Below are positions 2 through 37,611 of a DNA stretch of 64,000 nt, piece by piece. A program made the position numbers and the translations under genes. The stretch's first letter is position 1; each line of letters starts with the position of its first letter. The notes beneath the pieces are model-generated. The model saw nothing but the letters and a program-made list of their open reading frames with translations, was not told where the DNA came from and made no database searches. The DNA lies in the IMG/VR virus record IMGVR_UViG_3300028597_000007. One strand, given 5' to 3'. The stretch comes from a virus.

Positions 2-1540
2 CTGCTGATGACCGTCAAGACCTCCGACGCCGAGCACGTCGGCATGTACTCGTTCCTGATCGACGGCGCAGACATCCGTCTGACTCCGAAGGTCGACAAG
101 GTCGATGGCCGTGCCTACGAGACCCCGATCGTCATCGGCGACATCTACAACAGCCAGGACTACATCACCCGCGCCACCGAGCTGGTCACTCAGACCCGCC
201 AGGGCCGTGCGATCAACCTGATCGACGCCGGTGCCGTGATCCTGCCTGCCGCCTACAACATCGAAACCAACGGCGTGTACAACCTGCTGTACAAGGCCAC
301 CCTGGCACTGTACAACACCCTGAACTACGTCGTTCAGCTCGATGACCAACCAGCCTACACCCTGGCCGGTCGTAACCAAGGCGGCGAGCAACTGGTCGGC
401 CGTCTGAACTTCGGCGGCGAGCGTTACGTCGACGAAGTCGGCATGCCGCAGCGTCACGACGTTATCGTCGAGATGGATTCGGTCCGCAACCAGCAGAACC
501 GCGACTTCGCCGGCGCCTCCAGCAACATCACCAAGGTTGCCGGTTACATGGAGCCGGTGTACGCGCAGCCTGACCCGCAGAACCCTGCCAACAACCAGCC
601 GTTCTTCAACCAGATGGTGATCACCCAGATCGCCTCCGGCTTCGACGCGCAGGAAGTTGAAATGTCCCTGCTGGGCCTGGTCACTGCGACCATGGTGCAG
701 ATCCGCAATGGCTGGGCTGACGCCTACCTGCCGCGCTTCGCCAACCAGGGCAAGGAGCTGAACTTCCGTGACGTCGGCGCCCTGGGCTTCTGCGTACCGG
801 AAAATGCTCGTATCGACACCAAGGCTGCCAGCTTCAAGGAAAACTTCGGCAACTTCATGCGCGATTTCTTCCGCCTGAACGCCGGTGTGATCTTCGCGAT
901 CGATATCCCAGAAGTCGGTCCTGACGCCTTCATCATGGACATCTTCCGCGCTGCTGCCTCGGGCAACGGCAACGCCATCAAGGCGCTGACCGATGCGTGC
1001 AACAACCTGACCGGTGGTATCTACGGCCAGAAAGCTGCAGCCATCGGTGGTGGCTTCCCGCTGTTCATCGATACCGGCAACCGCATCCACAACGGTTACT
1101 ACGCTTCCGAAACCGGCGAGCTGCGTGACATTCGTGATGTGGACCTGCTGGCCGTCGCCAACGTCCTGGGCAAGACCAACCCACAGGCGCTCATCGACTA
1201 CGCTGATTCGTTCGCTGCCGGCACCGCCCAAGCGCCGATCCGTATGTCCAAGCGTTTGGCCATCATCGACGACGTGCTGCAAGGTCGTCAGGTGATCACT
1301 GGCTACTCCGGCCGCTACATCATCGGCCCTGTGTTCCTGCGCGTCCTGTCGGAAGCCTGCCAAGCCTGCGGCCTGGTTGTCAACCCAGCGAACATGGTTC
1401 ACGGTCTGGGTTCGGGTCAGGTCCTGGGTGGCTACGACTACGGCGCATTCGCAGCTGGTGCTGCTGGTGCTGGCGTGTTCAACGGCGGTGGCAACACCGC
1501 GGCCAACACCGCTGCTTACGGCGGTCGTTCGGTCTGGTAA
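2..1540 (+). CDS. chmA: Chimallin / phage nuclear shell protein (5'-truncated by window edge)
   Basis: Frame is open from base 2. Contains NRIHNGYY..GELRDIRDVDLLAVAN, recalled as chimallin-like. Lies directly upstream of the catalytic nvRNAP beta' gene, as phiKZ gp54 does to gp55. Strong C-ending codon bias. Confidence 0.85.
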   Translation: MLMTVKTSDAEHVGMYSFLIDGADIRLTPKVDKVDGRAYETPIVIGDIYNSQDYITRATELVTQTRQGRAINLIDAGAVILPAAYNIETNGVYNLLYKATLALYNTLNYVVQLDDQPAYTLAGRNQGGEQLVGRLNFGGERYVDEVGMPQRHDVIVEMDSVRNQQNRDFAGASSNITKVAGYMEPVYAQPDPQNPANNQPFFNQMVITQIASGFDAQEVEMSLLGLVTATMVQIRNGWADAYLPRFANQGKELNFRDVGALGFCVPENARIDTKAASFKENFGNFMRDFFRLNAGVIFAIDIPEVGPDAFIMDIFRAAASGNGNAIKALTDACNNLTGGIYGQKAAAIGGGFPLFIDTGNRIHNGYYASETGELRDIRDVDLLAVANVLGKTNPQALIDYADSFAAGTAQAPIRMSKRLAIIDDVLQGRQVITGYSGRYIIGPVFLRVLSEACQACGLVVNPANMVHGLGSGQVLGGYDYGAFAAGAAGAGVFNGGGNTAANTAAYGGRSVW

Positions 1541-6007: not shown

Positions 6008-6669
6008 ACGACCAAGACTTGCAGAAGCTCAACGAGCATCACAACGCCGTTGCGGCTGAGGCCGATAAGATGCCTGCTGGCCTGCCTTACTCGATGCGAG
6101 AGGCGCTGGCAGAGCTGAAGGTGGGCGAATTGAACTCTCTGGTGCGAGTACCTGAGAGCATCTTCGTACGTGACATCCTCCCAGCGCTGTGCGGTGAACT
6201 CGGCACGCTGGTGGATTTCAAATGGTGGGGGTTCCGCTTCGGTAGTCCGTACAAGGGCTTCCTGATTGTCAAAGACCACAACCAGAGCGAGGTGTTGTTC
6301 GAGGCACCTCCCCTACTTGACCGCAACTTCAAACTACGTCCTGCCCGCTCCCCTAAGGATACGGTGCGTGAGGCGGCGGCCAATTACCAGAACCGCGCCT
6401 ACAGTCGCCCGCACCAGGCCAAGAACGAGTTCAACGACGCCTTGCGTGGTCGCCTGGACTTCTCTGAAACTGGCCAGGCCCTGAAGTTCATGACCATGTT
6501 GGATAAGATCTTCATCCACTACGGAAAACCCTCTATCTTTGAGTCGATCACCGACCCAGCAGTTCTGGAAGCGGTTGGTCACGAAAAGATAGAGAGTCCT
6601 GCAACCGCCGGGACCGTTTCGACAGTCTACGACGAGCAGGCATATTCCGATGATGGACTCTACGATTAA
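6004..6669 (+). CDS. Hypothetical protein
   Basis: GGAGG RBS before a TTG start; 221 aa. Confidence 0.7.
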   Translation: MNDQDLQKLNEHHNAVAAEADKMPAGLPYSMREALAELKVGELNSLVRVPESIFVRDILPALCGELGTLVDFKWWGFRFGSPYKGFLIVKDHNQSEVLFEAPPLLDRNFKLRPARSPKDTVREAAANYQNRAYSRPHQAKNEFNDALRGRLDFSETGQALKFMTMLDKIFIHYGKPSIFESITDPAVLEAVGHEKIESPATAGTVSTVYDEQAYSDDGLYD

Positions 6670-7831
6670 CATCGCCAGTGTCAGCGATGTTCACATGGGG
6701 CACCCCCGCACCCCGACGCAGTTGATCGCTGACAACTTCCGCAAGCACGTCCTGCCGGATAACGCAGTCACTGCCCAGCTGGATGTCCTGAACATCTGTG
6801 GTGATTTCTGGGACCGACTACTGAACTTACCAGAGGAAGAAGTATACATAGCCCGCCAGCTGATCGTGTACATCCTCCTTATCTGTGCCAAGTACGGTAT
6901 CATTCTGCGTGTTCTGGAGGGCACTCCCCGCCATGACCGCAAGCAGTCGAAGATCTTCCAGGAATTGATCGACATTCTCAATCTGGATATCGATTACAAG
7001 TACATGGACGGCTGCCAGATCGAGTACATTGAAAAGCTCGACAAGCATGTCCTGTACATCCAGGATGAGTACGAGACGCCAGAGGTTGCACTGGCAGAGT
7101 TTCGTCGTCTGTTGGCTGAACGTGGCCTGGAGAAAGTTGACTGGGCAGTGATGCATGGTCAGTATGAGTTCCAACTGCCGGACATTGGTAACGCTCGACA
7201 CAAGTGCCATGACTCCCGTGCCTACCTTGCACTGGTGCGGTACTTCATCTTCATTGGCCACGACCACACCCATTCCACATTGGAGCTGCCTGAGTTTAGC
7301 AGCATCATTTGTGCGCACGGTTCTTGTGATCGTTTGGCACATGGCGAGGAAGAGCCTAAAGGCCACGTACGAGCGCGTATCGAGCCCGATGGTAGTAGGA
7401 CACTCACGTTCGTCGAAAACACCGATGCGATGGACTACAGGACCTTAGACGTGGCAGGACTCTCGACCGATGAGGTGATTGTTCTGATCCGTGCACAAGA
7501 GCTGCGCGACGGCAGCCACATTCGTCTTAAGGGTGACATTTTTGACAAGGGGCTGCGGATGATTCGTCATCTGCGTAAAGACTTCCCACAATACCGTCTT
7601 GAGCCTTTCCCGGTCAAAGAGAAGAAGCGAGAAACTGAGCAGGTTGTGCAAATCTCCTCTCGGTATCTCCCCGTGCAGTTCGGCCCATCCAACATCACTT
7701 CGTTGACAATGGATTGGTTGGCGCGCAATGGGTATTCTGAAACGGAGATCAAGGATTGTGAGGATCACTTGAATGAGCAAATCAACGCAGGCACTCGCCA
7801 GCAGGGAGCAAGGGCAGTTCCCGATTTCTAA
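6650..7831 (+). CDS. SbcD/Mre11-like metallophosphoesterase nuclease
   Basis: Calcineurin-like motifs SDVH, GDFWD, GTPRHD (GNHD position), MHG and GHDH. Confidence 0.88.
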   Translation: MMDSTINIASVSDVHMGHPRTPTQLIADNFRKHVLPDNAVTAQLDVLNICGDFWDRLLNLPEEEVYIARQLIVYILLICAKYGIILRVLEGTPRHDRKQSKIFQELIDILNLDIDYKYMDGCQIEYIEKLDKHVLYIQDEYETPEVALAEFRRLLAERGLEKVDWAVMHGQYEFQLPDIGNARHKCHDSRAYLALVRYFIFIGHDHTHSTLELPEFSSIICAHGSCDRLAHGEEEPKGHVRARIEPDGSRTLTFVENTDAMDYRTLDVAGLSTDEVIVLIRAQELRDGSHIRLKGDIFDKGLRMIRHLRKDFPQYRLEPFPVKEKKRETEQVVQISSRYLPVQFGPSNITSLTMDWLARNGYSETEIKDCEDHLNEQINAGTRQQGARAVPDF

Positions 7832-8636
7832 GGGCACCAGTTACGCAATCGAGTCTCTGGTAAACATGCACCCGGATCGGGAGAAGATCAAGCCCGAACC
7901 GTTGTCGCAGATCGATGTGTTGTTGGTCAACATTCGTACGTTGTACCGCAACATGTTGGGCGGCTTGAAAGCGGCTGTGAAAGAGCAGGTACAGGCAGTG
8001 GACATCCCTGACTTCCTCTTTCAGGAAATGCAGCAGGTGCGTGCCGCGGTAGACAAGATCGGTCATGGCAGGGTGCAGGTGTTCTTCTACCTCTGCACCT
8101 ATCCTGACCTGAAGAAACATTTCCCCAAGGCCAACCTGATTGAACCCACAACGCTCAAGCAGAAGGCTGCCAAGGCAATGGAGGATCAGGTGATCGCTGC
8201 CATGGTGGCGAGTCCTCAACTGTACGGCTATCCAAAGATCTTCGAGTACACCGTGGAGGGTGGTAAGCTTGAGAACGAACGGGTGGCTCTGCTGACCCAC
8301 CTCCCCCTGGACTTGGTAAATCGCTACCAGTTCAAGGAGATGTATTTGCTAGAGAGCAACACTGGCGCATTCAAAAAGCCCAGCGAGTTCAATAGCAAGT
8401 TCAAGGTGAAACCAGAAGGCACGCACCTCCCCTTCTCGGCGTTCACCCTGCAGATCTTTGGCGACGGTGGGAAGATGTTTATGCCCATGGCGTCTGAGAT
8501 TACGAATTCCGTAGCGGAGCTGGCGAGGAAGAATCGCTGGACTCCACTGACCACTGCCGAGAAGATCAGGTACAACCTGGACAACTCGCAGGGCAACAAG
8601 TTTTCAGGTTTCCTGAAGGCATTACTGCGCGAGTAA
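7773..8636 (+). CDS. Conserved chimallivirus hypothetical protein (phiKZ gp66 position)
   Basis: 287-aa ORF between the SbcD-like and ChmC-like genes. Confidence 0.75.
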   Translation: MSKSTQALASREQGQFPISKGTSYAIESLVNMHPDREKIKPEPLSQIDVLLVNIRTLYRNMLGGLKAAVKEQVQAVDIPDFLFQEMQQVRAAVDKIGHGRVQVFFYLCTYPDLKKHFPKANLIEPTTLKQKAAKAMEDQVIAAMVASPQLYGYPKIFEYTVEGGKLENERVALLTHLPLDLVNRYQFKEMYLLESNTGAFKKPSEFNSKFKVKPEGTHLPFSAFTLQIFGDGGKMFMPMASEITNSVAELARKNRWTPLTTAEKIRYNLDNSQGNKFSGFLKALLRE

Positions 8637-8700
8637 AACGTAACCGGATCAGGTTATTGTTTGAAGGCCATGACCCCAAATTTTCACTAGGAGCAACACC

Positions 8701-9447
8701 ATGTCTGGTGGCAACGAATCCCGTGTCAACATTCCAACCGCACTGATCGAATTCCGTCTGCGCCTCACCGCCGACAAACTTCCAGAAGGTCGTAAGAACC
8801 CGAACCTGGAAGTCAGCGTCAACAAGAAGAACGAGATCCAGATCAGCTGCAACACCGGTATCTTCGGCGCCGACAATGCCCAGGTGCGCATCGATGGCAA
8901 GCTGGGTCTGCTGGACTTCAACGCCCTGCACACCTACGTGGAGAACATCCACAAGGAAGCCGCCGGCCACAAGTACCCGCTGATCCGTCTGTACGGCCCG
9001 CGCAAGAAGCGCACCCCGCAGGATTCCGGCAAGGGTCTGGACGCAGTGCTGATCGTCGGCAAAGATGCCAACGGCGTGTGCTACATGTCCGTCATGCGCA
9101 AAGATGCCCCGCAGGTCAAGTTCGTGTTCCAGCCAGGCCGTTGGGTTGACCTGGTCGATGCCAACACCCAGCAGCCTCTGCCACTGGCCGACATCTCCAA
9201 CCTGTACTCGCAGGCCTGGGCCAAGACCTTCGCCCCTCTGGTCACCTACGCGCTGAATGTCAAGGTCTACGACTTCCGCGAAGACAACCAGCAAGGTGGC
9301 AACGGCGGCGGTAACAACTACCAGAACAACGGCGGTAGCAACAACAACTACCAGAACAACAACCGCGGCGGTGGTCAGCAACAGCAGCAACAAGCTCCTG
9401 CACCGGCCGGCGACTTCAACGGGTTCGATGACGACATCCCGCTGTAA
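8701..9447 (+). CDS. chmC: ChmC-like nucleic-acid-binding protein with N/G/Q-rich tail and SSB-like acidic tip
   Basis: AGGAG RBS; directly upstream of the gp68-like and PicA-like genes; disordered tail ending FDDDIPL; high-expression codon bias. Name assigned by synteny. Confidence 0.7.
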   Translation: MSGGNESRVNIPTALIEFRLRLTADKLPEGRKNPNLEVSVNKKNEIQISCNTGIFGADNAQVRIDGKLGLLDFNALHTYVENIHKEAAGHKYPLIRLYGPRKKRTPQDSGKGLDAVLIVGKDANGVCYMSVMRKDAPQVKFVFQPGRWVDLVDANTQQPLPLADISNLYSQAWAKTFAPLVTYALNVKVYDFREDNQQGGNGGGNNYQNNGGSNNNYQNNNRGGGQQQQQQAPAPAGDFNGFDDDIPL

Positions 9448-9460
9448 TTGCTTTTGAAAA

Positions 9461-9494
9461 AAACGGTGGGCCAGGAATGGTCCTCCGTTTATGC
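9461..9494 (+). terminator. GGAA-loop hairpin followed by TATGC
   Basis: aaacgg-t-gggcca-ggaa-tggtcc-t-ccgttt, then TATGCTGTCG. Confidence 0.6.
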
Positions 9495-9592: not shown

Positions 9593-11116
9593 ATGGAGAT
9601 CCAAATTGAAGGTTACTCTCCAACAGGCGCCTTCAAGCGAGTGGCTACCGTGCATAACGGTGAGTCCATTTCGTGGAACACGCAGACTTATTCCAAGCTG
9701 AAGTTCCACAATGCGGCTGTGATCTTTTCGGAGATCAATGCGCTCTGGGCTACGCTACCCATGGCAGCTCAGGACAAGATCTTCGCGGCGTACAAAGAGG
9801 TCCATCAACACCTCACTGAACCTGAGGATAATAAGCAGCAGGTCGAAAGGCTCATGGTGCTTATCGTTGAGATCTACAAGCACTACACGGCCAAAGATGC
9901 CGAGGATATCGTCAATGGGTTGAACCTGACATATCCAAGCTCGATGGCTGAGACCTACGGCGACAGTGGCGACAACGGGCGTACCCATACCCGTGCCGAC
10001 TACCATCGCCTGGTCCAACTGGCAATCCGGCTGCGCCCCATGTTGCCGGTGTTCGGCCAGTACATTCATACGTTCCTCGACCAACCGGGCTCGCAATACC
10101 GTGAGACCAGTGCGGTCAAGATCCTGAACGATACGGACGTACTGACCATGCCAGCGGTGGAGAAGTTGGTAAGTTTCATGGAGGCAACTCTGAAGAACTT
10201 CCAGCATCAGAACTCCGCCATTCTGGGAGGGAAGCTGGGTACTGCAGAAATGCCTTACTGGCTGGTCGCCAAGGCAATCTTCCGCAGGATCGCACCCGGC
10301 GAAGTACACAGCGTGGACGATGTATCTTCCATCATCACCAACGTGTACAACTTTGTGGTGAAGTCGACCCTCGACTCCATCCCCAGGAACTTTGGTGGCA
10401 CCAAAAACAAAACCCGCACCACAGAAGGTTCGAACAAAGACGAGAACGTTTCCTTGCTGGAAGCGATTCGAATCCGTGAGCAAATCTCTGGCGGGCGTAA
10501 GAAAGTGGTTGACGTGTATTCGCGTAACATCCTGTTCACAGCGCGTCGGGTAGATCCGACCGTGCCTGAGGCCATGGTGGAAGAATGCACCCGACCAGAC
10601 ATCACCAGACTGAACCGTGACGTGCATGAAGTGCAGTCGATCATGGCGCGTTGGGTAATGTCGCGAGGCCAGCCACCGTCGCACTATGACCTGCTCAAGC
10701 GCGAGCCGGTGTTCCGCTTCCTCGGGGCTGCTCAAGCCCTGCTCTGGCACTGGGGCTACCTGGAGCTGGCTGCATTGATGGATGCGGTTCCCCTGCAAGA
10801 CCTGACCATGGCTCCCTCGGCCACGCTGTGGGCACGAGAAGAGCTTAGCAAGGATCGTCTGGAACTGCTACGTGAGCGGTATCCACACGTGTCGCAACTG
10901 ACCCGCGGTAGCCAGAATCCCGATGAGGCTATCAAGGGTGTCGTGGAGAACGCAGAGCTTGCTCGCATGATCCACAGTGAAGAATGGGTCCTGGCAAAAG
11001 ACTCTCGGTTCTACGATCTCGTGAACCACAATGAGCAAGGACATCTGATCCTGTCCCCAGGCTTTAGAAACACCATCGCAGACCTGCAGCTTCAAGTATC
11101 TGCTGGTACGTGGTAA
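9593..11116 (+). CDS. nvRNAP fifth (promoter-specificity) subunit, phiKZ gp68-like
   Basis: 507 aa; AGGAG RBS; position between ChmC-like and PicA-like genes. Assigned by synteny and size. Confidence 0.7.
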   Translation: MEIQIEGYSPTGAFKRVATVHNGESISWNTQTYSKLKFHNAAVIFSEINALWATLPMAAQDKIFAAYKEVHQHLTEPEDNKQQVERLMVLIVEIYKHYTAKDAEDIVNGLNLTYPSSMAETYGDSGDNGRTHTRADYHRLVQLAIRLRPMLPVFGQYIHTFLDQPGSQYRETSAVKILNDTDVLTMPAVEKLVSFMEATLKNFQHQNSAILGGKLGTAEMPYWLVAKAIFRRIAPGEVHSVDDVSSIITNVYNFVVKSTLDSIPRNFGGTKNKTRTTEGSNKDENVSLLEAIRIREQISGGRKKVVDVYSRNILFTARRVDPTVPEAMVEECTRPDITRLNRDVHEVQSIMARWVMSRGQPPSHYDLLKREPVFRFLGAAQALLWHWGYLELAALMDAVPLQDLTMAPSATLWAREELSKDRLELLRERYPHVSQLTRGSQNPDEAIKGVVENAELARMIHSEEWVLAKDSRFYDLVNHNEQGHLILSPGFRNTIADLQLQVSAGTW

Positions 11117-11143: not shown

Positions 11144-12757
11144 ATGAAAACTGGCGTAAAGATTCTGAACATCCTGTTGGCCGAAGCAGTTCCATCGGTA
11201 CAGTTGTTCCACCGTCCGTGGGAAGTGAACTATCGCCCAGAGTACCTGGATGGGCTGATGGAGTCCACCAATGACGGTACCAACCTGTCGCCGGGCGCGA
11301 TCAAGCGCGTGGCTAACCAGATGCTGGTTCCTTCTGCCGCTCATACCGGGGCCGTGCAAATCGCAAACGGCTTCGATACCCAGCGCTTCACCGTGACCTT
11401 CGTCGTTGAAACTGAAAACGTCGGCGGCCGCAAGACTCAGGAGATCCTCTCCGGCTACACCGACCACATGGGCATTGGTGGTACCGATACCAACCCGATC
11501 TACAACCCAGAGATGCGCTTCTTCTTCAACCACATGGGCACGCTGCAAATCACCCAAGGTTCCGGTGCTCTGGGTTACGGCATGTTCACCTTCGGCAACG
11601 CCACCGAGATCCTGACGCCGATGATTGGCTGGGATAACCAGGAGCACGTGCCAGTGGTCAACCGCCAAGCTACCGCCATGCGTCCTCGCGACGTTCTGGC
11701 CAGCATGGGCGAAGGCGCATTCTCCGGCATGGGTATGACCACCGGCCAAAGTCAGCTGAACGGCGCCCCTGTTCTGGCCAACACTGGTTATCAATTCGGT
11801 GCCCGTGCCAAGCGTTCCAGCTTCGACAACACCGACTCGGCCGAATACCTGAGCCGCGTGTTCACTAGCGTGCGCGATGTGAGCCTGTCCAATGAGAGCG
11901 ATGCCCGTACCTACGGCACCTCCCTGCAGCAGGCTGGTGAGAACAACTACACCGCTGAGCCGCTGACCTCCAACTCGGCCATGATGCTGCTCCTACAGCG
12001 CCGTAGCCAGTACCAGTCCGAGTGGTCCGTAACCCTGGGTGAGCTGTGCCAGATTGACCCAACCATCGCTCAGCGTATCCAACCGATCCGCATGAAGCGC
12101 GACTATGTTCACACCATGGCCGCTATGATGGGTAACACCGACGGCTGGGGCGAAACCAGCAATGAGTCCCAAGTGGCTCAGCTGGCTACCATGATCATGC
12201 CGAATGCCATGGCGAAGTTTGCTCTGGGTATGCTGCACTTCATCGCACACACCGACACCCTCGATGGCTCTGTCGACCTGCGCATCATGAACGCAGCTGG
12301 TGTGGCTCAAGGTATCGATCCTAAGCCGATCATCAACATGATCCGTCACCACCTGATCTACGAAGTATATCCGACTCTCACCAAGCAAGGTGCGATTAAG
12401 CTGTACATCGAAGCGAACATCTCGCTGAACCGGATCTCGAACGTGATCGTGTCGGTCAACGGCGGTGAGAAGAAGCCGTTCCCAATCGCGACCTACTGCT
12501 CGGCCCTGTATTCGCCAAACCTTGCACCGAACGTGCAGCGTCTGGAGTCTCTGGCATCCGACCTCAGTGTCGTATCGGCGCAGCTCACTGCGGCGGCAAT
12601 CAACCATGGTCCAGGCATCATCCGTCCAGATGGTGGCCAGTTCCACAATATGAACTACGGTGGGAGCAGCATTGCCGCTACTCCGATCGCTGATCTCAAC
12701 GTTAATCTGTCGGGCCAGGGCGGCGTCCCAGGCACTGGCAATGGTCGTGGCTTCTAA
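11144..12757 (+). CDS. picA: PicA/Imp1-like nuclear import factor (phiKZ gp69 position)
   Basis: 537 aa directly after the gp68-like gene in the conserved block. Assigned by synteny. Confidence 0.68.
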   Translation: MKTGVKILNILLAEAVPSVQLFHRPWEVNYRPEYLDGLMESTNDGTNLSPGAIKRVANQMLVPSAAHTGAVQIANGFDTQRFTVTFVVETENVGGRKTQEILSGYTDHMGIGGTDTNPIYNPEMRFFFNHMGTLQITQGSGALGYGMFTFGNATEILTPMIGWDNQEHVPVVNRQATAMRPRDVLASMGEGAFSGMGMTTGQSQLNGAPVLANTGYQFGARAKRSSFDNTDSAEYLSRVFTSVRDVSLSNESDARTYGTSLQQAGENNYTAEPLTSNSAMMLLLQRRSQYQSEWSVTLGELCQIDPTIAQRIQPIRMKRDYVHTMAAMMGNTDGWGETSNESQVAQLATMIMPNAMAKFALGMLHFIAHTDTLDGSVDLRIMNAAGVAQGIDPKPIINMIRHHLIYEVYPTLTKQGAIKLYIEANISLNRISNVIVSVNGGEKKPFPIATYCSALYSPNLAPNVQRLESLASDLSVVSAQLTAAAINHGPGIIRPDGGQFHNMNYGGSSIAATPIADLNVNLSGQGGVPGTGNGRGF

Positions 12758-12766
12758 GGGGTAACC

Positions 12767-14122
12767 ATGAACGCAAAGGAAAAAACACTCAGCTTCTTGA
12801 CCAGCATCCTCGTCTCGTTGGGTGCTTCGGTCAAGGGTCGAGCGGTGGTGATTGAAACCGAAGACGGTGAAGATCCCATCGTGATCGATGGCAAGACGCT
12901 GGTCATGCCTACCGATGAAACGCTCAAGCTCTCCAACTGGGATACGGAGATTCCGTTCTTCCCACTCTGCGAGAGCATCCTGCGCGGTGAATCTGAAGTT
13001 CAGCAAGAGCTGCTCGACATGATTCGCAGCGCCGTCAACATCCGCCTGGCCTCGCTTGTCTGGCAAATGTTCAAAGTAGCGAACTCCGACGAGTGCAAGG
13101 CTAACAAGCTCAGTCCAGAACAGGCAGAGTTCCTGCCTTGTCTGCCTGGCTTCGATGCCGAGATGGTCAAACGCATCGGTAAGGTAGTGCTTGGCGTAGA
13201 TCCGTCCGAGTACAAGTCCAGCCTGGTTCACATGAACCTCAAGCGCCGCGCCAAGATCAATGGCAAGGCGTACGATCGTGCATGTCTGGTTCGCTTCCCT
13301 CTGGCCGAGATGGAACGCAAGGAGAAGCCTTACAGCGCCGACCTGCGTGTCAAGGACATGGATGCACTGACCAACCTGCTGGACTACGTGCTGCCTAACT
13401 GGCAGGTGGAGAACACCTACAGCCGTGGCACCGATAGCCAGGTCGCCCCGTACTTCGTGGCAAGCCTGCTGGCCTACCAGAACATCAATGCCCGTATCAC
13501 TGAGCTGGCCAAGCGCTTCGAACCAACCTTCCCGATCTTCGGGACGCTGGTCAACGAAGATGACTGGGTCGAGTGCATGGATGATCTGTCGCGCATGCGC
13601 GACAGCATGCCGAACCTGCCGGGCAACGATGGTAAGGTTGTGCGCGGTCAGGCCGATGCTCCGATCATCGACGATCCAAAGCCTGCTCGTGGCGTACAGA
13701 TGCCAACTCCAAGCGCAGCTCCTCAGCGTCAGCCGGGTAGCCTGCCATGGGAAGATCAACCGCAGCAAGAGCAGCGCCCGGTCGAACGTCGTGTGGTGGA
13801 CGATGAGGCTGTCGAGTACAAGCCGCGTCAACAACCGCAGTACGGCAACCCAGGTCACATCCCGGTGCATCAGCCAGTGCACACTGGTGGTCCGAACGGC
13901 TATGGTAACCAGAACCATCAGCCAAGCTTCGCCGAACTGCAGCGCCAACGTCAGCAAGGCCACTACGGCTACGCTACCGTGAACACGCAGCCAGAAGTTG
14001 GCGGTAGTCCGTTCAGCAGCAGTGCACAACCAGGTTCCACGACTAACGTGGGTAACTACAACGTCAGCTACACGACCGCGAACAACGGGTATAGCACCCA
14101 GCCTCAAGGTCGGGGCTACTAA
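12767..14122 (+). CDS. Conserved protein (phiKZ gp70 position) with P/Q/G/N/Y-rich disordered C-terminus
   Basis: 451 aa; low-complexity C-terminal ~150 aa; synteny. Confidence 0.7.
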   Translation: MNAKEKTLSFLTSILVSLGASVKGRAVVIETEDGEDPIVIDGKTLVMPTDETLKLSNWDTEIPFFPLCESILRGESEVQQELLDMIRSAVNIRLASLVWQMFKVANSDECKANKLSPEQAEFLPCLPGFDAEMVKRIGKVVLGVDPSEYKSSLVHMNLKRRAKINGKAYDRACLVRFPLAEMERKEKPYSADLRVKDMDALTNLLDYVLPNWQVENTYSRGTDSQVAPYFVASLLAYQNINARITELAKRFEPTFPIFGTLVNEDDWVECMDDLSRMRDSMPNLPGNDGKVVRGQADAPIIDDPKPARGVQMPTPSAAPQRQPGSLPWEDQPQQEQRPVERRVVDDEAVEYKPRQQPQYGNPGHIPVHQPVHTGGPNGYGNQNHQPSFAELQRQRQQGHYGYATVNTQPEVGGSPFSSSAQPGSTTNVGNYNVSYTTANNGYSTQPQGRGY

Positions 14123-31097: not shown

Positions 31098-32444
31098 GTG
31101 ATCGCGATGAAGATGATCACTGAGAACCTGACAGAGGAGTTGTTTACCGACGACCCTCTGATTCCCAAGGGGATCATCACGGCCTACGAGACGATCAAAC
31201 GAGATCGAATGGTAAGCCAAGAGATGGTGAGCCCCTACATCCAGAACTTCCCGATGAACGTGTCGCTCAGCAACTTTACCGTTGAGCCATCGGAGAAAGG
31301 ATTGGAAATCGCGCTGGAAGGCTTTGCGGTGCTGTTTAAGGTGACTGCCGGTGTTTTGCTGGTGTCTGCCCTGGGTGTGTGCATCTTCAACTTCATACGC
31401 TCCCGTAAAGCGGCTGAAGCCACTGCAGATGCGGCCACCAATGGTGTACTCCTGCATAAGGAAATCACCAAGCTGGTTCAGGGTATCCGTGCAGCCAAAG
31501 GCTTCCATGACCGTACCATCAAGATCAAGGCAAGTGACATCCCGCTGGGTCCAACCCGGCGTGCCTTGGGCCTGCATGGCGAGATTATCTACCCCGAGTG
31601 GGCAGATCGTTTCTACGCCTACGGTCACGACCAGCACTTCACCAACGCCATTGCCTCCAAGGTAGCAACCGGTCAGTTCTTCAGCATCACCGAGCATCTC
31701 ATGACGCCGATGGCTGATTACATGTCGGATCTGGCAGGTCGTGTCAAGCAGCTGACCAAGATGGTGGATAACCTCCCAGCCACCATCAACTCCGGTCGCC
31801 TGGAACAGGTCGCTCGTGACATCGAGCAACTGGACACCCGTTCTATCCGTGGCACGTTCCTGGGTCACCTCGAACGAGTTTATGGCAAAGAGCTGCCGCA
31901 GCCTCGGGTAACCTTCCAAGCCAACAGCGCGGAGTTACTAGATGCACGGGTAACGGCGCTGAAGGAGTTCTACGACAGCACTCGGGACGACAAGAAGTTC
32001 GTCCAGAACCACTACCAGGCCAACGTTGATCGTTGGAAGGCTGGTGATGTCGAACAGATGCTGGGGCGTATCCCAGAAATCTGCGCCCAGGCTGCAAAGC
32101 TTGGCGCTGCTCCTTCGCTGTCGACAGGTAAGTCCATCGTGGACGAATGCGAGCAACTGCGTCGCAAGATCTCTCCGATCGAAGTACCTGAGATGATTGA
32201 TCAGGCGCTTAAGAACACCCTCGAAAGTATCCGACTCGATTCTATTGCGTCGGTGAACCTCTTCGAAATGGTGATCAATGAACAGCGCCAGTTCACCATC
32301 TACATCCAGGACATCCTGAACCAGACCATCGAGTGGGCAACCGCTGTGGGTGCGTTCACCAAGCCAGCTGATCCACAAGCAGCTCGGCGGTTGATGAGCG
32401 ACGCTCAAGATGCAACCAAAGCCACGCGCAAGGTAAAACTTTAA
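31098..32444 (+). CDS. Probable internal head/ejection protein (propeptide, ALE site, hydrophobic helix)
   Basis: IALE-GFAVLFKVTAGVLLVSALGVCIFNFIRS. Start may be ATG 31107 or 31113. Confidence 0.68.
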   Translation: MIAMKMITENLTEELFTDDPLIPKGIITAYETIKRDRMVSQEMVSPYIQNFPMNVSLSNFTVEPSEKGLEIALEGFAVLFKVTAGVLLVSALGVCIFNFIRSRKAAEATADAATNGVLLHKEITKLVQGIRAAKGFHDRTIKIKASDIPLGPTRRALGLHGEIIYPEWADRFYAYGHDQHFTNAIASKVATGQFFSITEHLMTPMADYMSDLAGRVKQLTKMVDNLPATINSGRLEQVARDIEQLDTRSIRGTFLGHLERVYGKELPQPRVTFQANSAELLDARVTALKEFYDSTRDDKKFVQNHYQANVDRWKAGDVEQMLGRIPEICAQAAKLGAAPSLSTGKSIVDECEQLRRKISPIEVPEMIDQALKNTLESIRLDSIASVNLFEMVINEQRQFTIYIQDILNQTIEWATAVGAFTKPADPQAARRLMSDAQDATKATRKVKL

Positions 32445-32496
32445 GCCACCCTGCCCCCTACAGGTTCACGCTTGTAGGGGGCTCAAGGAGTTTTTT

Positions 32497-35400
32497 ATGA
32501 AAGAGTACGATCTGGCCAGCTTGGCCCAGGCGTCTGACAAAGATCTGGTTGAGTTCCTCGGTCAGAACGAGCGTGTCATCGGTGAGGTGACTGCCCACAT
32601 TGCCAACCTGGAACGCCTCAAGGGTACCAGTCAGGCACATGCGCTTGGCTACCAGGAATACCTGCCCGACGAAATCACCATGCAGGACTTTGACACTCAC
32701 CTGTCGAAGAAAGGCTACCAGATGTCCACCGAGGCTCTGCACACCATCCTGCTCGTGGCCGCATCCGCCGCTGTCGTCGCTGGCATCGGTATCATCGCCT
32801 ACAAGCTGATCAAAGCTTCGATGGCCAAGGAGCCCAAGTCCGCCGACTTCCTCAAGAAACAGAAGGAAGTTCAGCAGTTCGCCATGCATTTGATCAAGGT
32901 GCAGTGGAGCGATGCCGCCGCCCCTACCCGTGAAGCGCTGAAGACCAAGTTCCTGGCCGACTGCGTCAGCGAAGTAACTGCGAACCTGTCCGAAGCAGAC
33001 CTGCTGAACGACCCGTTCAACGCCTACGTGCGCAGCGAGTTCAAGACCTCCGGCGTTCCGTACATGGCACTGGTTGCCGGCATGCGTGGTCCAGCCTCGA
33101 TCTTCTCTGGCGCTGCCACCATCTACCTGACCAACGTCAAGGAATCGCTGGAAGCCTTCCGCCGTGAGTTCCTGGACGTGATCGCTGGTGCGCCTGATAT
33201 CACCGACCACCAGATGATCAACCTGGTCAATGGCCTCAAGTGGAACCAGATCGACAACGGTAACGCTGCCGGTGTTCAGGCTCTGATGGGTTGGATCAAT
33301 GCCATGGGTATCCCGTCCAGCAACCGTCTGGAAGAAGCCCTGCGCAATGCCAACGACATCCTGTCGGCCCCGGCCACCATCGACCAGATCAATGCCTACG
33401 ACCAGCACATCCAAGATGAGCTGATTGGCGAGGGCACTGTTCCCAAGGTCATTGCAATGATCCAGTCGCTCAAGGCCACCGGCAAGTACATCGAAGGTGC
33501 CAAGGGTAACTTCGTGGCTGGCGAGAAACGCTCGCAGCAAGTGGTTGACCTGTTCAAGGCCCAGATCGAACGTGCGCAGCTGCTGACCGACACCATCCCT
33601 CTGATCTCGCCACTGGTGACCCTGGAGTCCGACAACATCGTTCGTCGCTCCAAGTGCATCGCCAATGCCGGCAAGGCCCTGCTCAATGCCATTGAAGATG
33701 TGGCAGACAAGCTGGAAGACAAGGAAGCGGCCAAAGAGATCCGCACCGCGTTGGACGAGATTGCCCGTGCGTCCAAACAAGTGCTGAAAATGAAAACCGA
33801 GTCGCTGGTAGAACTTCCTGCCCCGGTCAGCTACGGCACCATGATGGACCTGCAAGCCAAGTCCGTGTGGATGGAACTGCTGAAGTCTTTGGCAGTGGCC
33901 GCGATGATCGGCCTGGCCGTGTTCGCCATCCAGGCGCTGGTATTGTCTATGTTGGGTCTGCAGTCGATGGCTGCATCCTTCGCTGGCGGCATCGTTTATT
34001 TCAACAAGAACGGTAAGCGTATCACCCCTGGCGAAGCCGCCGACGCCATTGCCAAGACCGTTGAGGAAAAGCGTACTGGCAAATACGGCGCGACCCTGGT
34101 AACCGGCCAACGCAATCTGCCATTCATTCTGAACCGTAGCCATCTGGACTCTGGCTTCAAGGACGTGGCTGCTGGCGTTGAGAAGTCGCTGAACGAGTTT
34201 GCCAACGAGCTACCGCGCGGGGGTGAGATTACCAGCGAGGCTATGGTTGCCGCCGCCAACAGCGGTATGAAGCACCTTAAGCGCACCATCTCCATTTTGG
34301 AAGGTCGTTTGAAGGGCATGAAGGTCAAGGTACCAGGCGGCGACCCGTCGGTTAAAGCCACCACCCACAACCTGCGTGACGCGATGGATGCTTACGTTGA
34401 CGAGTGGTTCAACCCTGAAAAGGCGAACTACGCTATCGTGCGTCAGGGCATCGACACCACCTGGTTCGGCGTCATGGACCCGAAGATGGCCGAGCACGTG
34501 GACGCCAACGCCAAGGTTCTGACCGACGGCATCGTACGCTTTGCCAAGTCCATCCCGAACGCAAGTAAGGATGAACTGACCAAGCTGTCGCCAGAGGCCC
34601 AAGAAGCCCATGCCAACTTCAGTCAGGCTCAGGCATACCTGGCAACCCTCGGCTTCGTCATTACTGAAATCACCAAGAAGGCAATTGCCGACGGTGGTAA
34701 AGGTATGCAGGCGGTAAAAGACAACCTCAAGATGAAGGGCGAGGATATTGGCGGCATCGAGGTCGAGGATGACTTCGGTGGTGACGACATCGTTCAGTAT
34801 CAAGAGGATCTCGATCCCTTGGTTGACATTGCAGACGCCATGGGCGACCTGTATGTTGACGAACAGACTGATGCAGTGATGGCCATCGAGAAGATGAGCG
34901 TCAAGACCAAGCGCTTGCTGATGACCGCTGGTATCGTCCTCGCATTGGGTGCTGGTGCTTATCTGCTGCTGTCCATGTCCCAGAACCGCCGCAGCCCTTC
35001 CTCGTTTGCAACTGACAAGATGTTCAAGCAAATCCAGAAGGACCTGGAGGCCAGCTTGGCATCTGAAGAGTTTGCAGCCCGGATGCAGGCTTCCAGTGAG
35101 GAGCTGGGCGATGCCTTGCAGAAGGACTTCGACCGCATGCGCAAGCAAGCGGAGAGCCTTCGCCAGAAGACCGCGCAGCCGACCGAGAAAGAAGTCGGCG
35201 GCCAGCGTGTTGACGCAGGTGCCGCGCGCCCTGCTTCTGTGCATCCGCGCATCGGCGAGACCGGTTCCCCAGTGGCCGGGTCCAACAATGCGTCTCAGGC
35301 CAACCCTGAAACCACTTGGATCAACGACGTACCACACAGCACCGAGGCCCTACAGATTGCCAAGGAAGTGGACGAACTGATCGCCAACCTCGGCAAGTTC

Positions 35401-36237
35401 GACTACAAGGGTGTGCTGCGTAGTCGTCTGGTTGAGCGTGCCCCTGGCATGGTTGCTTTGAACATGGCCACCGGTGGCTTCGACAAGGCTAGCGAGATCC
35501 TTTCGGGTGACCGCACGCGTCGTGTCGATAAGTTGATGGACCTCATGACCCACGTCATGGAGAACATCGTTGAACCGGTCATCGATGTGGTCCGCGGTCA
35601 GGGCGATACCAATCCACAGGCTGAGCAGGTCTACGACAAGGTTGTGGCTGCCATCGAAAAGGCAACCGCCGATGCTACTGCCGAACGACTGCTCGACGAG
35701 GCCTACATGGCTCGCACCGAGGAAGACTTCGCAGACTGGTCCAAGCCTTGCACCGAGTCCGATGTGGTGGAAGCCATGGGTCGCTTCGATCCGAAGTGCG
35801 TGCAGTCGGCCGAGCGCTACTACCTGGACGAGGCCAAGTCTTACCACAGCTTGTCGCAAGACCTGGACTCGATGTGGAAGGACAACAAGGACTTCCTCAA
35901 CCGCGAAGTGGGTGATCGGTTCAACGAGCTGAAGGGTAACCGGGACGCAACCTCCAAGCTCATCCGCCGCATGGAAGAGTTCAAGCCAACCTTCAACGTC
36001 ATTGCGCGTTCGATCAAGGCTCATGTGGCCATCAGCGACGTCATCTTCGAGGCCAGTGAATTCTGCCTGCGGGTGCATCGCAGTGTGCAGCGTGAGCTGA
36101 TCAAGTCCCTGCAGTTCCACCAGATGAAGGTGGCCGAGCTGGATGCCCGTATGGGTAAACAGTCCGAGACGCTGGGCAAGCTCTCGAAAGAGATGCAGGA
36201 TCAGATCAACCGCTTCAATGATCGCAAAGATACCTAA
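32497..36237 (+). CDS. Large internal head/ejection protein, possibly multi-module
   Basis: 1246 aa with three hydrophobic helices, two directly preceded by S/A-x-E sites. Confidence 0.7.
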   Translation: MKEYDLASLAQASDKDLVEFLGQNERVIGEVTAHIANLERLKGTSQAHALGYQEYLPDEITMQDFDTHLSKKGYQMSTEALHTILLVAASAAVVAGIGIIAYKLIKASMAKEPKSADFLKKQKEVQQFAMHLIKVQWSDAAAPTREALKTKFLADCVSEVTANLSEADLLNDPFNAYVRSEFKTSGVPYMALVAGMRGPASIFSGAATIYLTNVKESLEAFRREFLDVIAGAPDITDHQMINLVNGLKWNQIDNGNAAGVQALMGWINAMGIPSSNRLEEALRNANDILSAPATIDQINAYDQHIQDELIGEGTVPKVIAMIQSLKATGKYIEGAKGNFVAGEKRSQQVVDLFKAQIERAQLLTDTIPLISPLVTLESDNIVRRSKCIANAGKALLNAIEDVADKLEDKEAAKEIRTALDEIARASKQVLKMKTESLVELPAPVSYGTMMDLQAKSVWMELLKSLAVAAMIGLAVFAIQALVLSMLGLQSMAASFAGGIVYFNKNGKRITPGEAADAIAKTVEEKRTGKYGATLVTGQRNLPFILNRSHLDSGFKDVAAGVEKSLNEFANELPRGGEITSEAMVAAANSGMKHLKRTISILEGRLKGMKVKVPGGDPSVKATTHNLRDAMDAYVDEWFNPEKANYAIVRQGIDTTWFGVMDPKMAEHVDANAKVLTDGIVRFAKSIPNASKDELTKLSPEAQEAHANFSQAQAYLATLGFVITEITKKAIADGGKGMQAVKDNLKMKGEDIGGIEVEDDFGGDDIVQYQEDLDPLVDIADAMGDLYVDEQTDAVMAIEKMSVKTKRLLMTAGIVLALGAGAYLLLSMSQNRRSPSSFATDKMFKQIQKDLEASLASEEFAARMQASSEELGDALQKDFDRMRKQAESLRQKTAQPTEKEVGGQRVDAGAARPASVHPRIGETGSPVAGSNNASQANPETTWINDVPHSTEALQIAKEVDELIANLGKFDYKGVLRSRLVERAPGMVALNMATGGFDKASEILSGDRTRRVDKLMDLMTHVMENIVEPVIDVVRGQGDTNPQAEQVYDKVVAAIEKATADATAERLLDEAYMARTEEDFADWSKPCTESDVVEAMGRFDPKCVQSAERYYLDEAKSYHSLSQDLDSMWKDNKDFLNREVGDRFNELKGNRDATSKLIRRMEEFKPTFNVIARSIKAHVAISDVIFEASEFCLRVHRSVQRELIKSLQFHQMKVAELDARMGKQSETLGKLSKEMQDQINRFNDRKDT

Positions 36238-36246
36238 GGAGGTAAT

Positions 36247-37611
36247 GTGAGCGACTATTCCATGAAGATGGAAGAGCTGCTCGAAGACCTTGAAGGCAAT
36301 GATTGGGTGGCTGACCCTGACGCGCCTCTGAGATTAGAGGACGAAGAAGGGAACGTCATCCCAATGCCTGGGGACAACGAACAGCCTTCGGAAGAGGAGC
36401 TGGACGATGCCGTATTCCTAGCACATGGTCGCGAAACCGAATTGGTCAACATCATGGAAATGCTCCAGAGTTCTGGCGGCGTATCCCGTGACATGGCCAT
36501 GCAGTTCCGCGACCTGCTTCCGCCAGAGATGGCGATGGAATCGTTCACTGTCCAGGTGACGCAAACCAACCATGTCATGGCCATGGAGTATGTGGGGACT
36601 GCAATCAAGATCGCGGCCGCTGCCGGCGTGATCGCAGTATTGGGTGCGGTGGGTTATCTGATCTATCGCATTACCAAGTCCCGCAAACGCATGCCTAAGA
36701 ACAAGTTGGACAAAGCGGTATCTGCGGCATACGGCACTGCTGAGGAAAAGCTCAAGGTTGTGTTGGAAGGGCTCAAGCATGAGTACCCTGAAATCGAGCA
36801 CGTCGAACTCAAGTGGAACAAGGAAGAGGCGCTTGTCCAGATGGCAATCCAATGCCAGATGCAAGAGCTGGACCTGCGCATGATGACTGGGACCTACAAG
36901 TCCTTCGTTGGCATGGTGGGTTCTGATGCCTTGGTGCAGGCTAATGAGATCAAGAAGTTCTTTGATACGTCAGTCTTCCCAGAACTTGACAAGATGTCCA
37001 AGGCAGGTACGGGCAAGGATATTGACGACATCACCAAAAAGATCCAGGAATTCAAATTCACGGATATGGTGTCCAAACACCTTGATCGTTTCGGTCACGA
37101 CATGCAGGTCAACTTCGAGCGCCCTGATCAGGTCTGTGAGAAGTTCCGTGCCAAGTATTCCCGTAGCGTGAGTGTTGAGGAGGCGGCCAGTAAGCTGAAG
37201 GGTGTTAAGCCCAACGGTGTGGACGTCCCTGAGCAGGCTGCTGTTGGTCTGTACAAGGCACAGGACATCATGACCCAGATGTTGGTCAAGGTGAAGAACT
37301 ACGAGAAGAAGCTGGAGAAGACGAAAGAACTCCCAGCCGATTACGTGGCTCAGATCAAAGGCGTGTTGGAGAAGTGCAAGCAGCCTCTCAAATCCTTGGG
37401 TGATGTATTCAACATCCTGGAGATGGAGATTGCTTCGCAGACCCGCTGTGCCAAGATCAAAGGCCTGGCTGTAGCGGAAGGTTACAAGAACGTAGCCAAC
37501 CACTACAAGGAGAAAGCGTTGACCGACAAGGAACACCGCGCATCCTACCGAGCCTGCGTCAAAGTGCTGGACAAGTCCTTCGACGACATCCGTGGCGCCA
37601 TGAAGTTGTAA
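36247..37611 (+). CDS. Probable internal head/ejection protein
   Basis: AAGGAGGT RBS; acidic propeptide; two AME sites, then AIKIAAAAGVIAVLGAVGYLIY. Confidence 0.72.
   Translation: MSDYSMKMEELLEDLEGNDWVADPDAPLRLEDEEGNVIPMPGDNEQPSEEELDDAVFLAHGRETELVNIMEMLQSSGGVSRDMAMQFRDLLPPEMAMESFTVQVTQTNHVMAMEYVGTAIKIAAAAGVIAVLGAVGYLIYRITKSRKRMPKNKLDKAVSAAYGTAEEKLKVVLEGLKHEYPEIEHVELKWNKEEALVQMAIQCQMQELDLRMMTGTYKSFVGMVGSDALVQANEIKKFFDTSVFPELDKMSKAGTGKDIDDITKKIQEFKFTDMVSKHLDRFGHDMQVNFERPDQVCEKFRAKYSRSVSVEEAASKLKGVKPNGVDVPEQAAVGLYKAQDIMTQMLVKVKNYEKKLEKTKELPADYVAQIKGVLEKCKQPLKSLGDVFNILEMEIASQTRCAKIKGLAVAEGYKNVANHYKEKALTDKEHRASYRACVKVLDKSFDDIRGAMKL

Follow-up and report, generated by a model that had tools for sequence, protein, structure and literature searches.

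The subject of this report is a gene in a 64,000-nucleotide stretch of viral DNA (IMG/VR record IMGVR_UViG_3300028597_000007, hereafter the window). An open reading frame (ORF) on the plus strand, running from an ATG at 8701 to a TAA stop codon at 9445-9447, encodes a 248-residue protein of an uncultured soil jumbo phage that is a chimallivirus, the nucleus-forming type. Homology, gene order and predicted fold together identify the product as a true orthologue of ChmC, also called Imp6, and its chain closes with a short acidic-hydrophobic peptide of the type that ends bacterial single-stranded DNA-binding proteins (SSBs). A protein identical to this one is present in metagenome assemblies of ENA, JGI and Logan (ERZ27256767, JGI 3300028608 and SRR8439256), for which no host is given; a search of the window for tRNA genes, as clues to the host, found none.

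Inspection of the C-terminal 55 residues reveals two copies of NNYQNN, followed by GGG-Q6-APAPAG and then by DFNGFDDDIPL, which runs directly into the stop codon. An earlier note on this DNA, made from the letters alone, had described a folded domain, an N/G/Q-rich linker with NNYQNN twice and this same ending, and both the ORF translation and an AlphaFold2 (AF2) model computed on an alignment agree with that description. In the model, an ordered core spanning residues 8 to 198, approximately, and built from two beta-beta-beta-alpha repeats (predicted local distance difference test values, pLDDT, mostly 83-97) is followed by a disordered region at residues 199-248, where pLDDT is about 32-45 and stays below 50 except at residues 244-245. 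The best structural matches in the PDB are WHY2 (Z 9.0), WHY1 (8.8), MRP1/MRP2 (8.6), PBF-2 (8.3) and Pur-alpha (7.0), with the next match at 5.2; Foldseek alone returns Whirly proteins at marginal E-values of 1e-3 to 3e-2. By sequence the protein does not belong to the Whirly family, having no Pfam match and only 8-10% identity in Whirly structural alignments. The core is thus predicted by modelling to have a Whirly/PUR-type fold, which is the fold published for ChmC (PMC11077065).

The relationship to ChmC is independently visible in sequence comparisons. The match to the phrog_3284 profile (Table 1) spans residues 13-247, and a tblastn search of 50,697 phage records with the window protein returned a single match, Goslar gp176 (E 3e-7). 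The link to the phiKZ and PhiPA3 members of the family can be seen by profiles only: an alignment of 19 sequences, comprising the window protein and 18 metagenomic relatives (alignment A1), matched phiKZ gp67 in hhalign with 99.8% probability (E 6.9e-30). A Pfam search of the window protein gave no family at E <= 0.1. Goslar gp176, PhiPA3 gp61 and phiKZ gp67 have all been described as ChmC (PMC11077065), and phiKZ gp67 is also Imp6, which binds the import factor Imp1 directly (bioRxiv 10.1101/2024.03.27.586873). Together with the Whirly fold, these matches carry the assignment beyond the position of the gene, from which the earlier note had taken it. The gene adds a divergent new member to a family that is already known and characterised, and the protein has the 50-70-residue, disordered, N/G-rich C-terminal region with an acidic end by which ChmC is recognised.

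Four metagenomic ChmC relatives (P0022, P0043, P0053 and P0094; 419-466 residues) carry tandem Whirly cores with one linker and one SSB-type tip. In this they recall the dimeric SSBs of Deinococcus and Thermus, which have two OB folds and two tails, instead of four, per functional unit.

To place the C-terminal peptide in its family, we searched 1.84 billion representatives with a profile, which yielded 1321 family members at E <= 0.001, and counted the residues at the tip in the best 150 of these 1321, taken as representatives of 50% identity clusters. Numbered backward from the C-terminus, the preferred residues are F at -7 (41 of 150), D at -6 (83), D at -5 (109), D at -4 (110), I, L or F at -3 (66, 42 and 23, respectively), P at -2 (134) and F, M, W or L at -1 (82, 30, 18 and 8). 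The resulting consensus for the last seven residues, FDDDIPF, is identical to the end of Escherichia coli SSB. An ending of the form [ILMFVW]-P-[FWMLIYV] occurs in 131 of the 150 representatives, and the exact ending DDDIPF in 15. Across an alignment of 145 ChmC sequences, the residue equivalent to P247 is identical in 92%, D245 in 79% and D244 in 74%, which puts the proline at -2 in the group of about ten columns that are best conserved in the entire protein; the 40 residues that precede the tip are conserved neither in sequence nor in length, and the linkers of the 150 representatives consist of 30% G and 14% N. In alignment A1, D245 and P247 are two of only five invariant columns. Because the tip is conserved across the family, its resemblance to the SSB tail is not due to chance. 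Aligning the C-termini of ChmC homologues, as the earlier note had suggested, therefore revealed a conserved tail, and removes the objection raised there that it might not be one. The note's further idea, that the change from a terminal Phe to Leu retunes specificity, is not borne out: Leu is one of four tolerated end residues, a minority variant that the window protein has in common with its closest relatives.

Among cultured phages, SA002, Ea35-70, FLC9 and DT01 have near-canonical tips, and phiKZ, PhiPA3 and PS119XW have one additional residue separating the proline from the terminal Phe. A ChmC homologue is also encoded at 1192-1854 of MW749006.1, a record labelled 'Bacillus phage vB_BspM_AgentSmith' (E 4e-16 to Goslar ChmC); its linker is short and poor in G, yet it ends in FDTDVPM. 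Either chimallivirus-like phages reach the Firmicutes or the Bacillus host label of this record is doubtful.

We next compared the tip with that of bacterial SSB itself. Translation of the E. coli K-12 gene gives a G/Q/P-rich linker followed by MDFDDDIPF, and the window protein matches six of the last seven residues, the exception being Leu where SSB ends in Phe, which supports the earlier description of its tail as a near-copy. The bacterial tip is strikingly constant: when 80 gammaproteobacterial SSB loci were read in the matched frame, 74 were readable and all 74 (74/80 loci) end in DDDIPF. The end residue of ChmC is more mobile, requiring at least 42 changes on a 145-leaf tree of the core domain; trees with shuffled labels require a mean of 63 and a minimum of 55. 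Where the SSB tip could be read from the DNA of the host of a cultured phage, the ChmC tip differs from it, as seen for Goslar and E. coli, SA002 and Salmonella, Ea35-70 and Erwinia, and two Vibrio phages and Vibrio. In Pseudomonas lundensis (JAWQUI010000003.1), an SSB-like ORF continues for 16 residues beyond an internal MDFEDDIPF, so that this tip is not a free C-terminus; the ORF may be a variant or broken second copy of SSB.

The window protein thus combines a disordered linker and an SSB-type peptide at a free C-terminus with a core that has no Pfam SSB match and is predicted to be of Whirly/PUR type. Lacking the OB-fold ssDNA-binding domain, it is not an SSB by family membership. We also considered whether linker and tip had been captured together from an SSB gene, given the shared order of Q-rich, A/P-rich and acidic segments, and dropped the idea, as low-complexity sequence gives no reliable homology signal. 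In the searchable literature we found no paper linking ChmC with SSB; texts on ChmC, on Imp6 and on the RNase H-clamp DNA polymerase subunit (Rhc), as well as reviews, make no mention of SSB, and an SSB-type tip on a Whirly core was not found there. The published account of ChmC describes its end only as an S/D/E-rich 'electronegative cluster', without comparison to SSB (PMC11077065). Drift of the tip in the model phages may explain this description.

The genes around chmC (Table 1) reproduce the order of the phiKZ-type block (SbcD-like, gp66-like, ChmC, gp68-like, Imp1/PicA, gp70-like), an order also found in 15 cultured phages. The SbcD-like nuclease gene likewise neighbours chmC in phiKZ, PhiPA3, 201phi2-1 and others, gp68 of phiKZ is a non-virion RNA polymerase subunit (10.1101/2024.03.27.586873), and the Imp1/PicA orthologue aligns in hhalign with Goslar gp174 over 461 columns (99.7%, E 3.4e-26), the protein named PicA in that phage (PMC13648698). 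The chimallin ORF covers positions 145-667 of the 677 in its profile, annotated 'nuclear shell protein'. Since the window also encodes split RNA polymerase subunits, a DnaB-like helicase, pieces of DNA polymerase and a jumbo-phage major head protein, it represents part of a chimallivirus genome, with a GC content of about 55%.

Table 1. Features of the chmC locus and its surroundings, with positions in the window.
Feature	Position	Strand	Evidence
Chimallin (ChmA), nuclear shell protein, N-terminus cut by window edge	8..1540	+	phrog_4795, E 8.2e-65
SbcD-like nuclease (phiKZ gp65 position)	6650..7831	+	phrog_100, E 2.5e-40
gp66-like protein of unknown function	7773..8636	+	phrog_3229, E 1.1e-70; synteny
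chmC/imp6 orthologue	8701..9447	+	ORF; phrog_3284, E 2.5e-34; tblastn, Goslar gp176; hhalign, phiKZ gp67
Whirly/PUR-type nucleic-acid-binding core, residues 1-198 (predicted)	8701..9294	+	AF2 model; structural matches
N/G/Q-rich disordered linker up to APAPAG, residues 199-237	9295..9411	+	pLDDT 32-36
SSB C-terminal-type acidic-hydrophobic tip DFNGFDDDIPL, free C-terminus, residues 238-248	9412..9444	+	Sequence; family consensus
GC-rich hairpin with UAUGC directly after it, likely to mark the 3' end of the chmC transcript	9461..9490	+	RNA fold
gp68-like protein	9593..11116	+	phrog_3209, E 5.1e-89
Imp1/PicA orthologue	11144..12757	+	phrog_3141, E 4.8e-62; hhalign to Goslar gp174
gp70-like protein	12767..14122	+	phrog_3520, E 7.7e-68

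Several details of this region deserve mention in their own right. As called, the gp66-like ORF overlaps the end of the SbcD-like gene by 59 nucleotides (7773-7831), and its true start therefore probably lies further downstream. Inside the otherwise well-matched chimallivirus core region, three consecutive plus-strand ORFs of 448, 1246 and 454 residues (31098-37611) have no PHROG match at E <= 0.001. After a glycine-rich stretch, the Imp1/PicA orthologue ends in GNGRGF (12734-12757), the gp70-like protein in PQGRGY (14099-14122) and chimallin in YGGRSVW (1517-1540), and these, too, are short motifs that close the chain of a shell-associated protein with an aromatic residue.

At the level of the gene, the GC content of chmC at the first, second and third codon positions is 0.61, 0.37 and 0.79. 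The third-position value is among the top gene calls of the window (0.77-0.80) and near the 0.80 of chimallin, consistent with high expression. Overlapping chmC is an antisense ORF of 275 residues (8566-9393), which was rejected, because the codon-position pattern fits the plus-strand gene and is that of a non-coding frame for its rival. The predicted hairpin downstream of chmC (-18.6 kcal/mol, z -2.62) begins 14 nucleotides past the stop codon, within a gap of 145 nucleotides to the next gene. Scans for sigma-70 promoters and intrinsic terminators around chmC gave nothing useful, the terminator scan missing this hairpin because it lacks a U-tract.

What the tip might do can be judged against the published biology of ChmC, whose outline, as given in the earlier note (RNA binding, condensates and a link to import in phiKZ), proved accurate (PMC11077065, 10.1101/2024.03.27.586873). 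ChmC binds RNA and forms condensates, and the PhiPA3 protein is a homotetramer with a Kd of 58 nM for RNA and 184 nM for ssDNA (PMC11077065), corresponding to binding of ssDNA that is approximately threefold weaker. Removal of residues 204-251 from PhiPA3 ChmC abolishes condensates and shell localisation and leaves tetramer formation and RNA binding intact, and Goslar ChmC without its C-terminus fails to rescue phage titre; these deletions take out linker and tip together, as a 48-residue block (PMC11077065). ChmC was found by proximity labelling from nuclear UvsX, has ChmB and RNA polymerase subunits among its interactors (PMC11077065) and was pulled down with Rhc (PMC13648698). The C-terminal peptide of SSB, for its part, is highly conserved, binds at least 18 proteins and enhances phase separation (PMC7584906, PMC8881015).

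We somewhat favour a reading in which ChmC, with its Whirly core, serves as a hub in the manner of SSB. Its tip would dock partner proteins that are likelier to come from the phage than from the host, and would probably also fold back on ChmC itself. The Whirly-type core would bind single-stranded RNA and DNA, and from each core a flexible N/G/Q-rich linker would present a free peptide that follows the grammar of the SSB peptide, namely acidic residues, then I, L or F, a proline and finally a hydrophobic residue whose carboxylate is free. As a docking peptide, the tip would place its hydrophobic end residue and carboxylate in a hydrophobic pocket with a basic rim on each partner, and RNA or ssDNA coated with ChmC would thereby become a hub that gathers proteins both at the nuclear shell and in the interior of the phage nucleus. 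When free, it may fold back onto the basic surface with which its own tetramer, or one next to it, binds nucleic acid, and would in this way adjust binding and promote condensates; potato WHIRLY1 and SSB, whose C-terminal residues contact their own cores, offer precedents. Partners would more probably be encoded by the phage and co-evolve with the tip; shell or import proteins, RNA polymerase and proteins of replication or recombination are candidates. The interactors named in published data, which are Imp1, ChmB, RNA polymerase subunits, nuclear UvsX and Rhc, belong to the phage.

A more far-reaching version of this proposal starts from an apparent gap in the gene content of nucleus-forming phages. 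The PF00436 SSB family was not found in the complete genomes of Goslar, phiKZ, PhiPA3, 201phi2-1 and DT01, in a search whose positive control matched 10 of 14 genomes. ChmC could then be the replicative and recombination SSB that these phages appear to lack, a Whirly protein with the whole SSB design (tetramer, linker and docking peptide), whose tip would assemble replisome, recombination and R-loop-handling enzymes of the phage on ssDNA and nascent RNA in the phage nucleus, with the handling of mRNA as one job among others. We regard this version as possible, though rather doubtful.

Three other explanations compete with the hub. That the tip is a chance resemblance in a low-complexity tail, or part of a mis-called ORF, draws on the low complexity of the linker and on the overlapping antisense ORF, and we consider it refuted by the size of the family, the conservation of the tip across it and the codon-position GC pattern. 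A more substantial alternative is host mimicry, in which the tip copies the host SSB peptide so that abundant ChmC recruits, imports or titrates host RecQ, ExoI, PriA, the Pol III chi subunit, RNase HI and topoisomerases. The identity of the ChmC and bacterial consensus sequences fits this idea, and the constancy of the tip is easier to understand if the receptor pockets lie on host proteins that must go on binding host SSB as well. Part of the ChmC is, moreover, cytoplasmic, and the protein ranks with the most abundant of the early ones (PMC11077065); chmC has a high GC3 here, and at least one host protein, TopA, is imported by the Imp1 pathway, to which gp67/Imp6 is attached (10.1101/2024.03.27.586873). 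Against mimicry stands the end residue, which is F in only 55% of the ChmC representatives and changes so often on the tree, whereas every readable gammaproteobacterial SSB locus ends in DDDIPF. Such variability is a better fit to a co-evolving phage partner or to self-contact than to a host partner. Cultured phages of E. coli, Salmonella, Erwinia and Vibrio differ at the tip from the SSB of the hosts they grow on, the ChmC of phiKZ and PhiPA3 has an added residue between Pro and Phe, and most host proteins are kept out of the phage nucleus (PMC11077065, 10.1101/2024.03.27.586873). We therefore think mimicry of the host improbable.

The acidic end might, alternatively, have no specific partner at all, serving only for solubility and autoinhibition and adjusting both RNA binding and the condensates formed by the N/G-rich linker. 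This interpretation has been published (PMC11077065) and accords with the loss of condensates upon removal of the C-terminus. Intramolecular contacts of this kind have precedents: in potato WHIRLY1, the conserved C-terminal Glu271 and Trp272 contact Lys188 of the core, lowering ssDNA binding, and mutation of Trp272 raises it (PMC9070903), and the SSB peptide also binds its own OB fold (PMC7584906). A plain cluster of charge is nonetheless insufficient to account for a near-invariant proline at -2, hydrophobic residues at -3 and -1 and a fixed distance to the C-terminus, which are the marks of a peptide that fits a pocket. That pocket could be on ChmC itself. An element without any partner seems to us unlikely as the full explanation.

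Several observations count against the favoured hub and its extension. Binding of the tip to any partner is itself our proposal, and an 'electronegative cluster' that keeps an RNA-binding protein soluble (PMC11077065) would also select for acidic residues. In Goslar, 201phi2-1 and two Vibrio phages, little is left of the tip beyond acidic residues and a terminal aromatic residue, the Vibrio tips retaining acidic residues plus a terminal W only. Goslar ChmC without its C-terminus still forms puncta at the shell (PMC11077065). The Imp1-gp67 complex contains two gp67 per Imp1 (10.1101/2024.03.27.586873), a stoichiometry that, set against the ChmC tetramer, suggests that the folded core rather than the tip contacts Imp1; the construct name 'gp67-FLAG' indicates that the C-terminus may have been blocked. 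As to the SSB gap, the absence with a working control concerns one Pfam family, PF00436, since gp32 (PF08804) and T7 gp2.5-type (PF10991) proteins were detected neither in the five chimallivirus genomes nor in any control genome. A complex prediction for tail residues 209-248 (alignment A1) with the Imp1/PicA orthologue, run without controls, scored 0.00 (mark 0.32) and speaks neither for nor against binding.

Across nucleus-forming phages ChmC/Imp6 is conserved, essential and present in abundance, and two groups have connected it with export of mRNA in one case and import of protein in the other. Function depends on its C-terminal region, which has so far been interpreted through condensate formation. 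If the last seven residues are an SSB-type docking peptide, the roles of tip and linker, and the identity of tip-binding proteins, become separable questions, and the tip offers a direct route to testing what the tail does. ChmC also becomes a candidate for SSB function, as the search of five of these genomes yielded no canonical SSB gene. Should the proposal hold, ChmC would clearly exemplify how the complete tail design of bacterial SSB has been acquired by a different fold; should mimicry of the host prove correct instead, the tip would give a phage a novel means of hijacking or blunting the genome-maintenance enzymes of its host.

Comparison with known systems places the window protein closest to the ChmC/Imp6 proteins of cultured phages (PhiPA3 gp61, phiKZ gp67, Goslar gp176 and 201phi2-1 gp123), with which it shares core homology, gene neighbourhood, the Whirly fold and a C-terminal region that is disordered, rich in N and G, and acidic at its end. 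It is only about 20-28% identical to them, and its tip is canonical (acidic-I-P-hydrophobic), whereas theirs carry an extra residue (phiKZ and PhiPA3) or are more divergent (Goslar and 201phi2-1). With bacterial SSB (PF00436), ChmC has in common single-stranded nucleic-acid binding and a tetrameric state (SSB, PMC8881015; PhiPA3 ChmC, PMC11077065), a disordered linker rich in G, Q, N and P, a conserved acidic-hydrophobic peptide at a free C-terminus and the formation of condensates; it differs in having a Whirly rather than an OB core, in an end residue that can be F, M, W or L rather than a fixed Phe and, for the PhiPA3 protein, in preferring RNA over ssDNA in vitro. The tetrameric ssDNA- or RNA-binding proteins that match the core best (plant WHY1 and WHY2, PBF-2/StWHIRLY1 and Trypanosoma brucei MRP1/MRP2; Z 8.0-9.0) are only 5-10% identical to it in structural alignments, and the window protein has no Pfam match. 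In plant Whirly proteins, too, a conserved C-terminal pair of one acidic and one aromatic residue makes contact with the core and reduces ssDNA binding, but this motif is not at the extreme C-terminus, has no long N/G linker before it and differs from the D-D-I-P-F type. Among phage proteins, T7 gp2.5 and T4 gp32 have an acidic C-terminal tail, with a terminal Phe in gp2.5, that organises the replisome and competes with DNA for the binding cleft. These two, like the plasmid and phage SSBs with a host-like tip, differ from ChmC in being OB-fold proteins.

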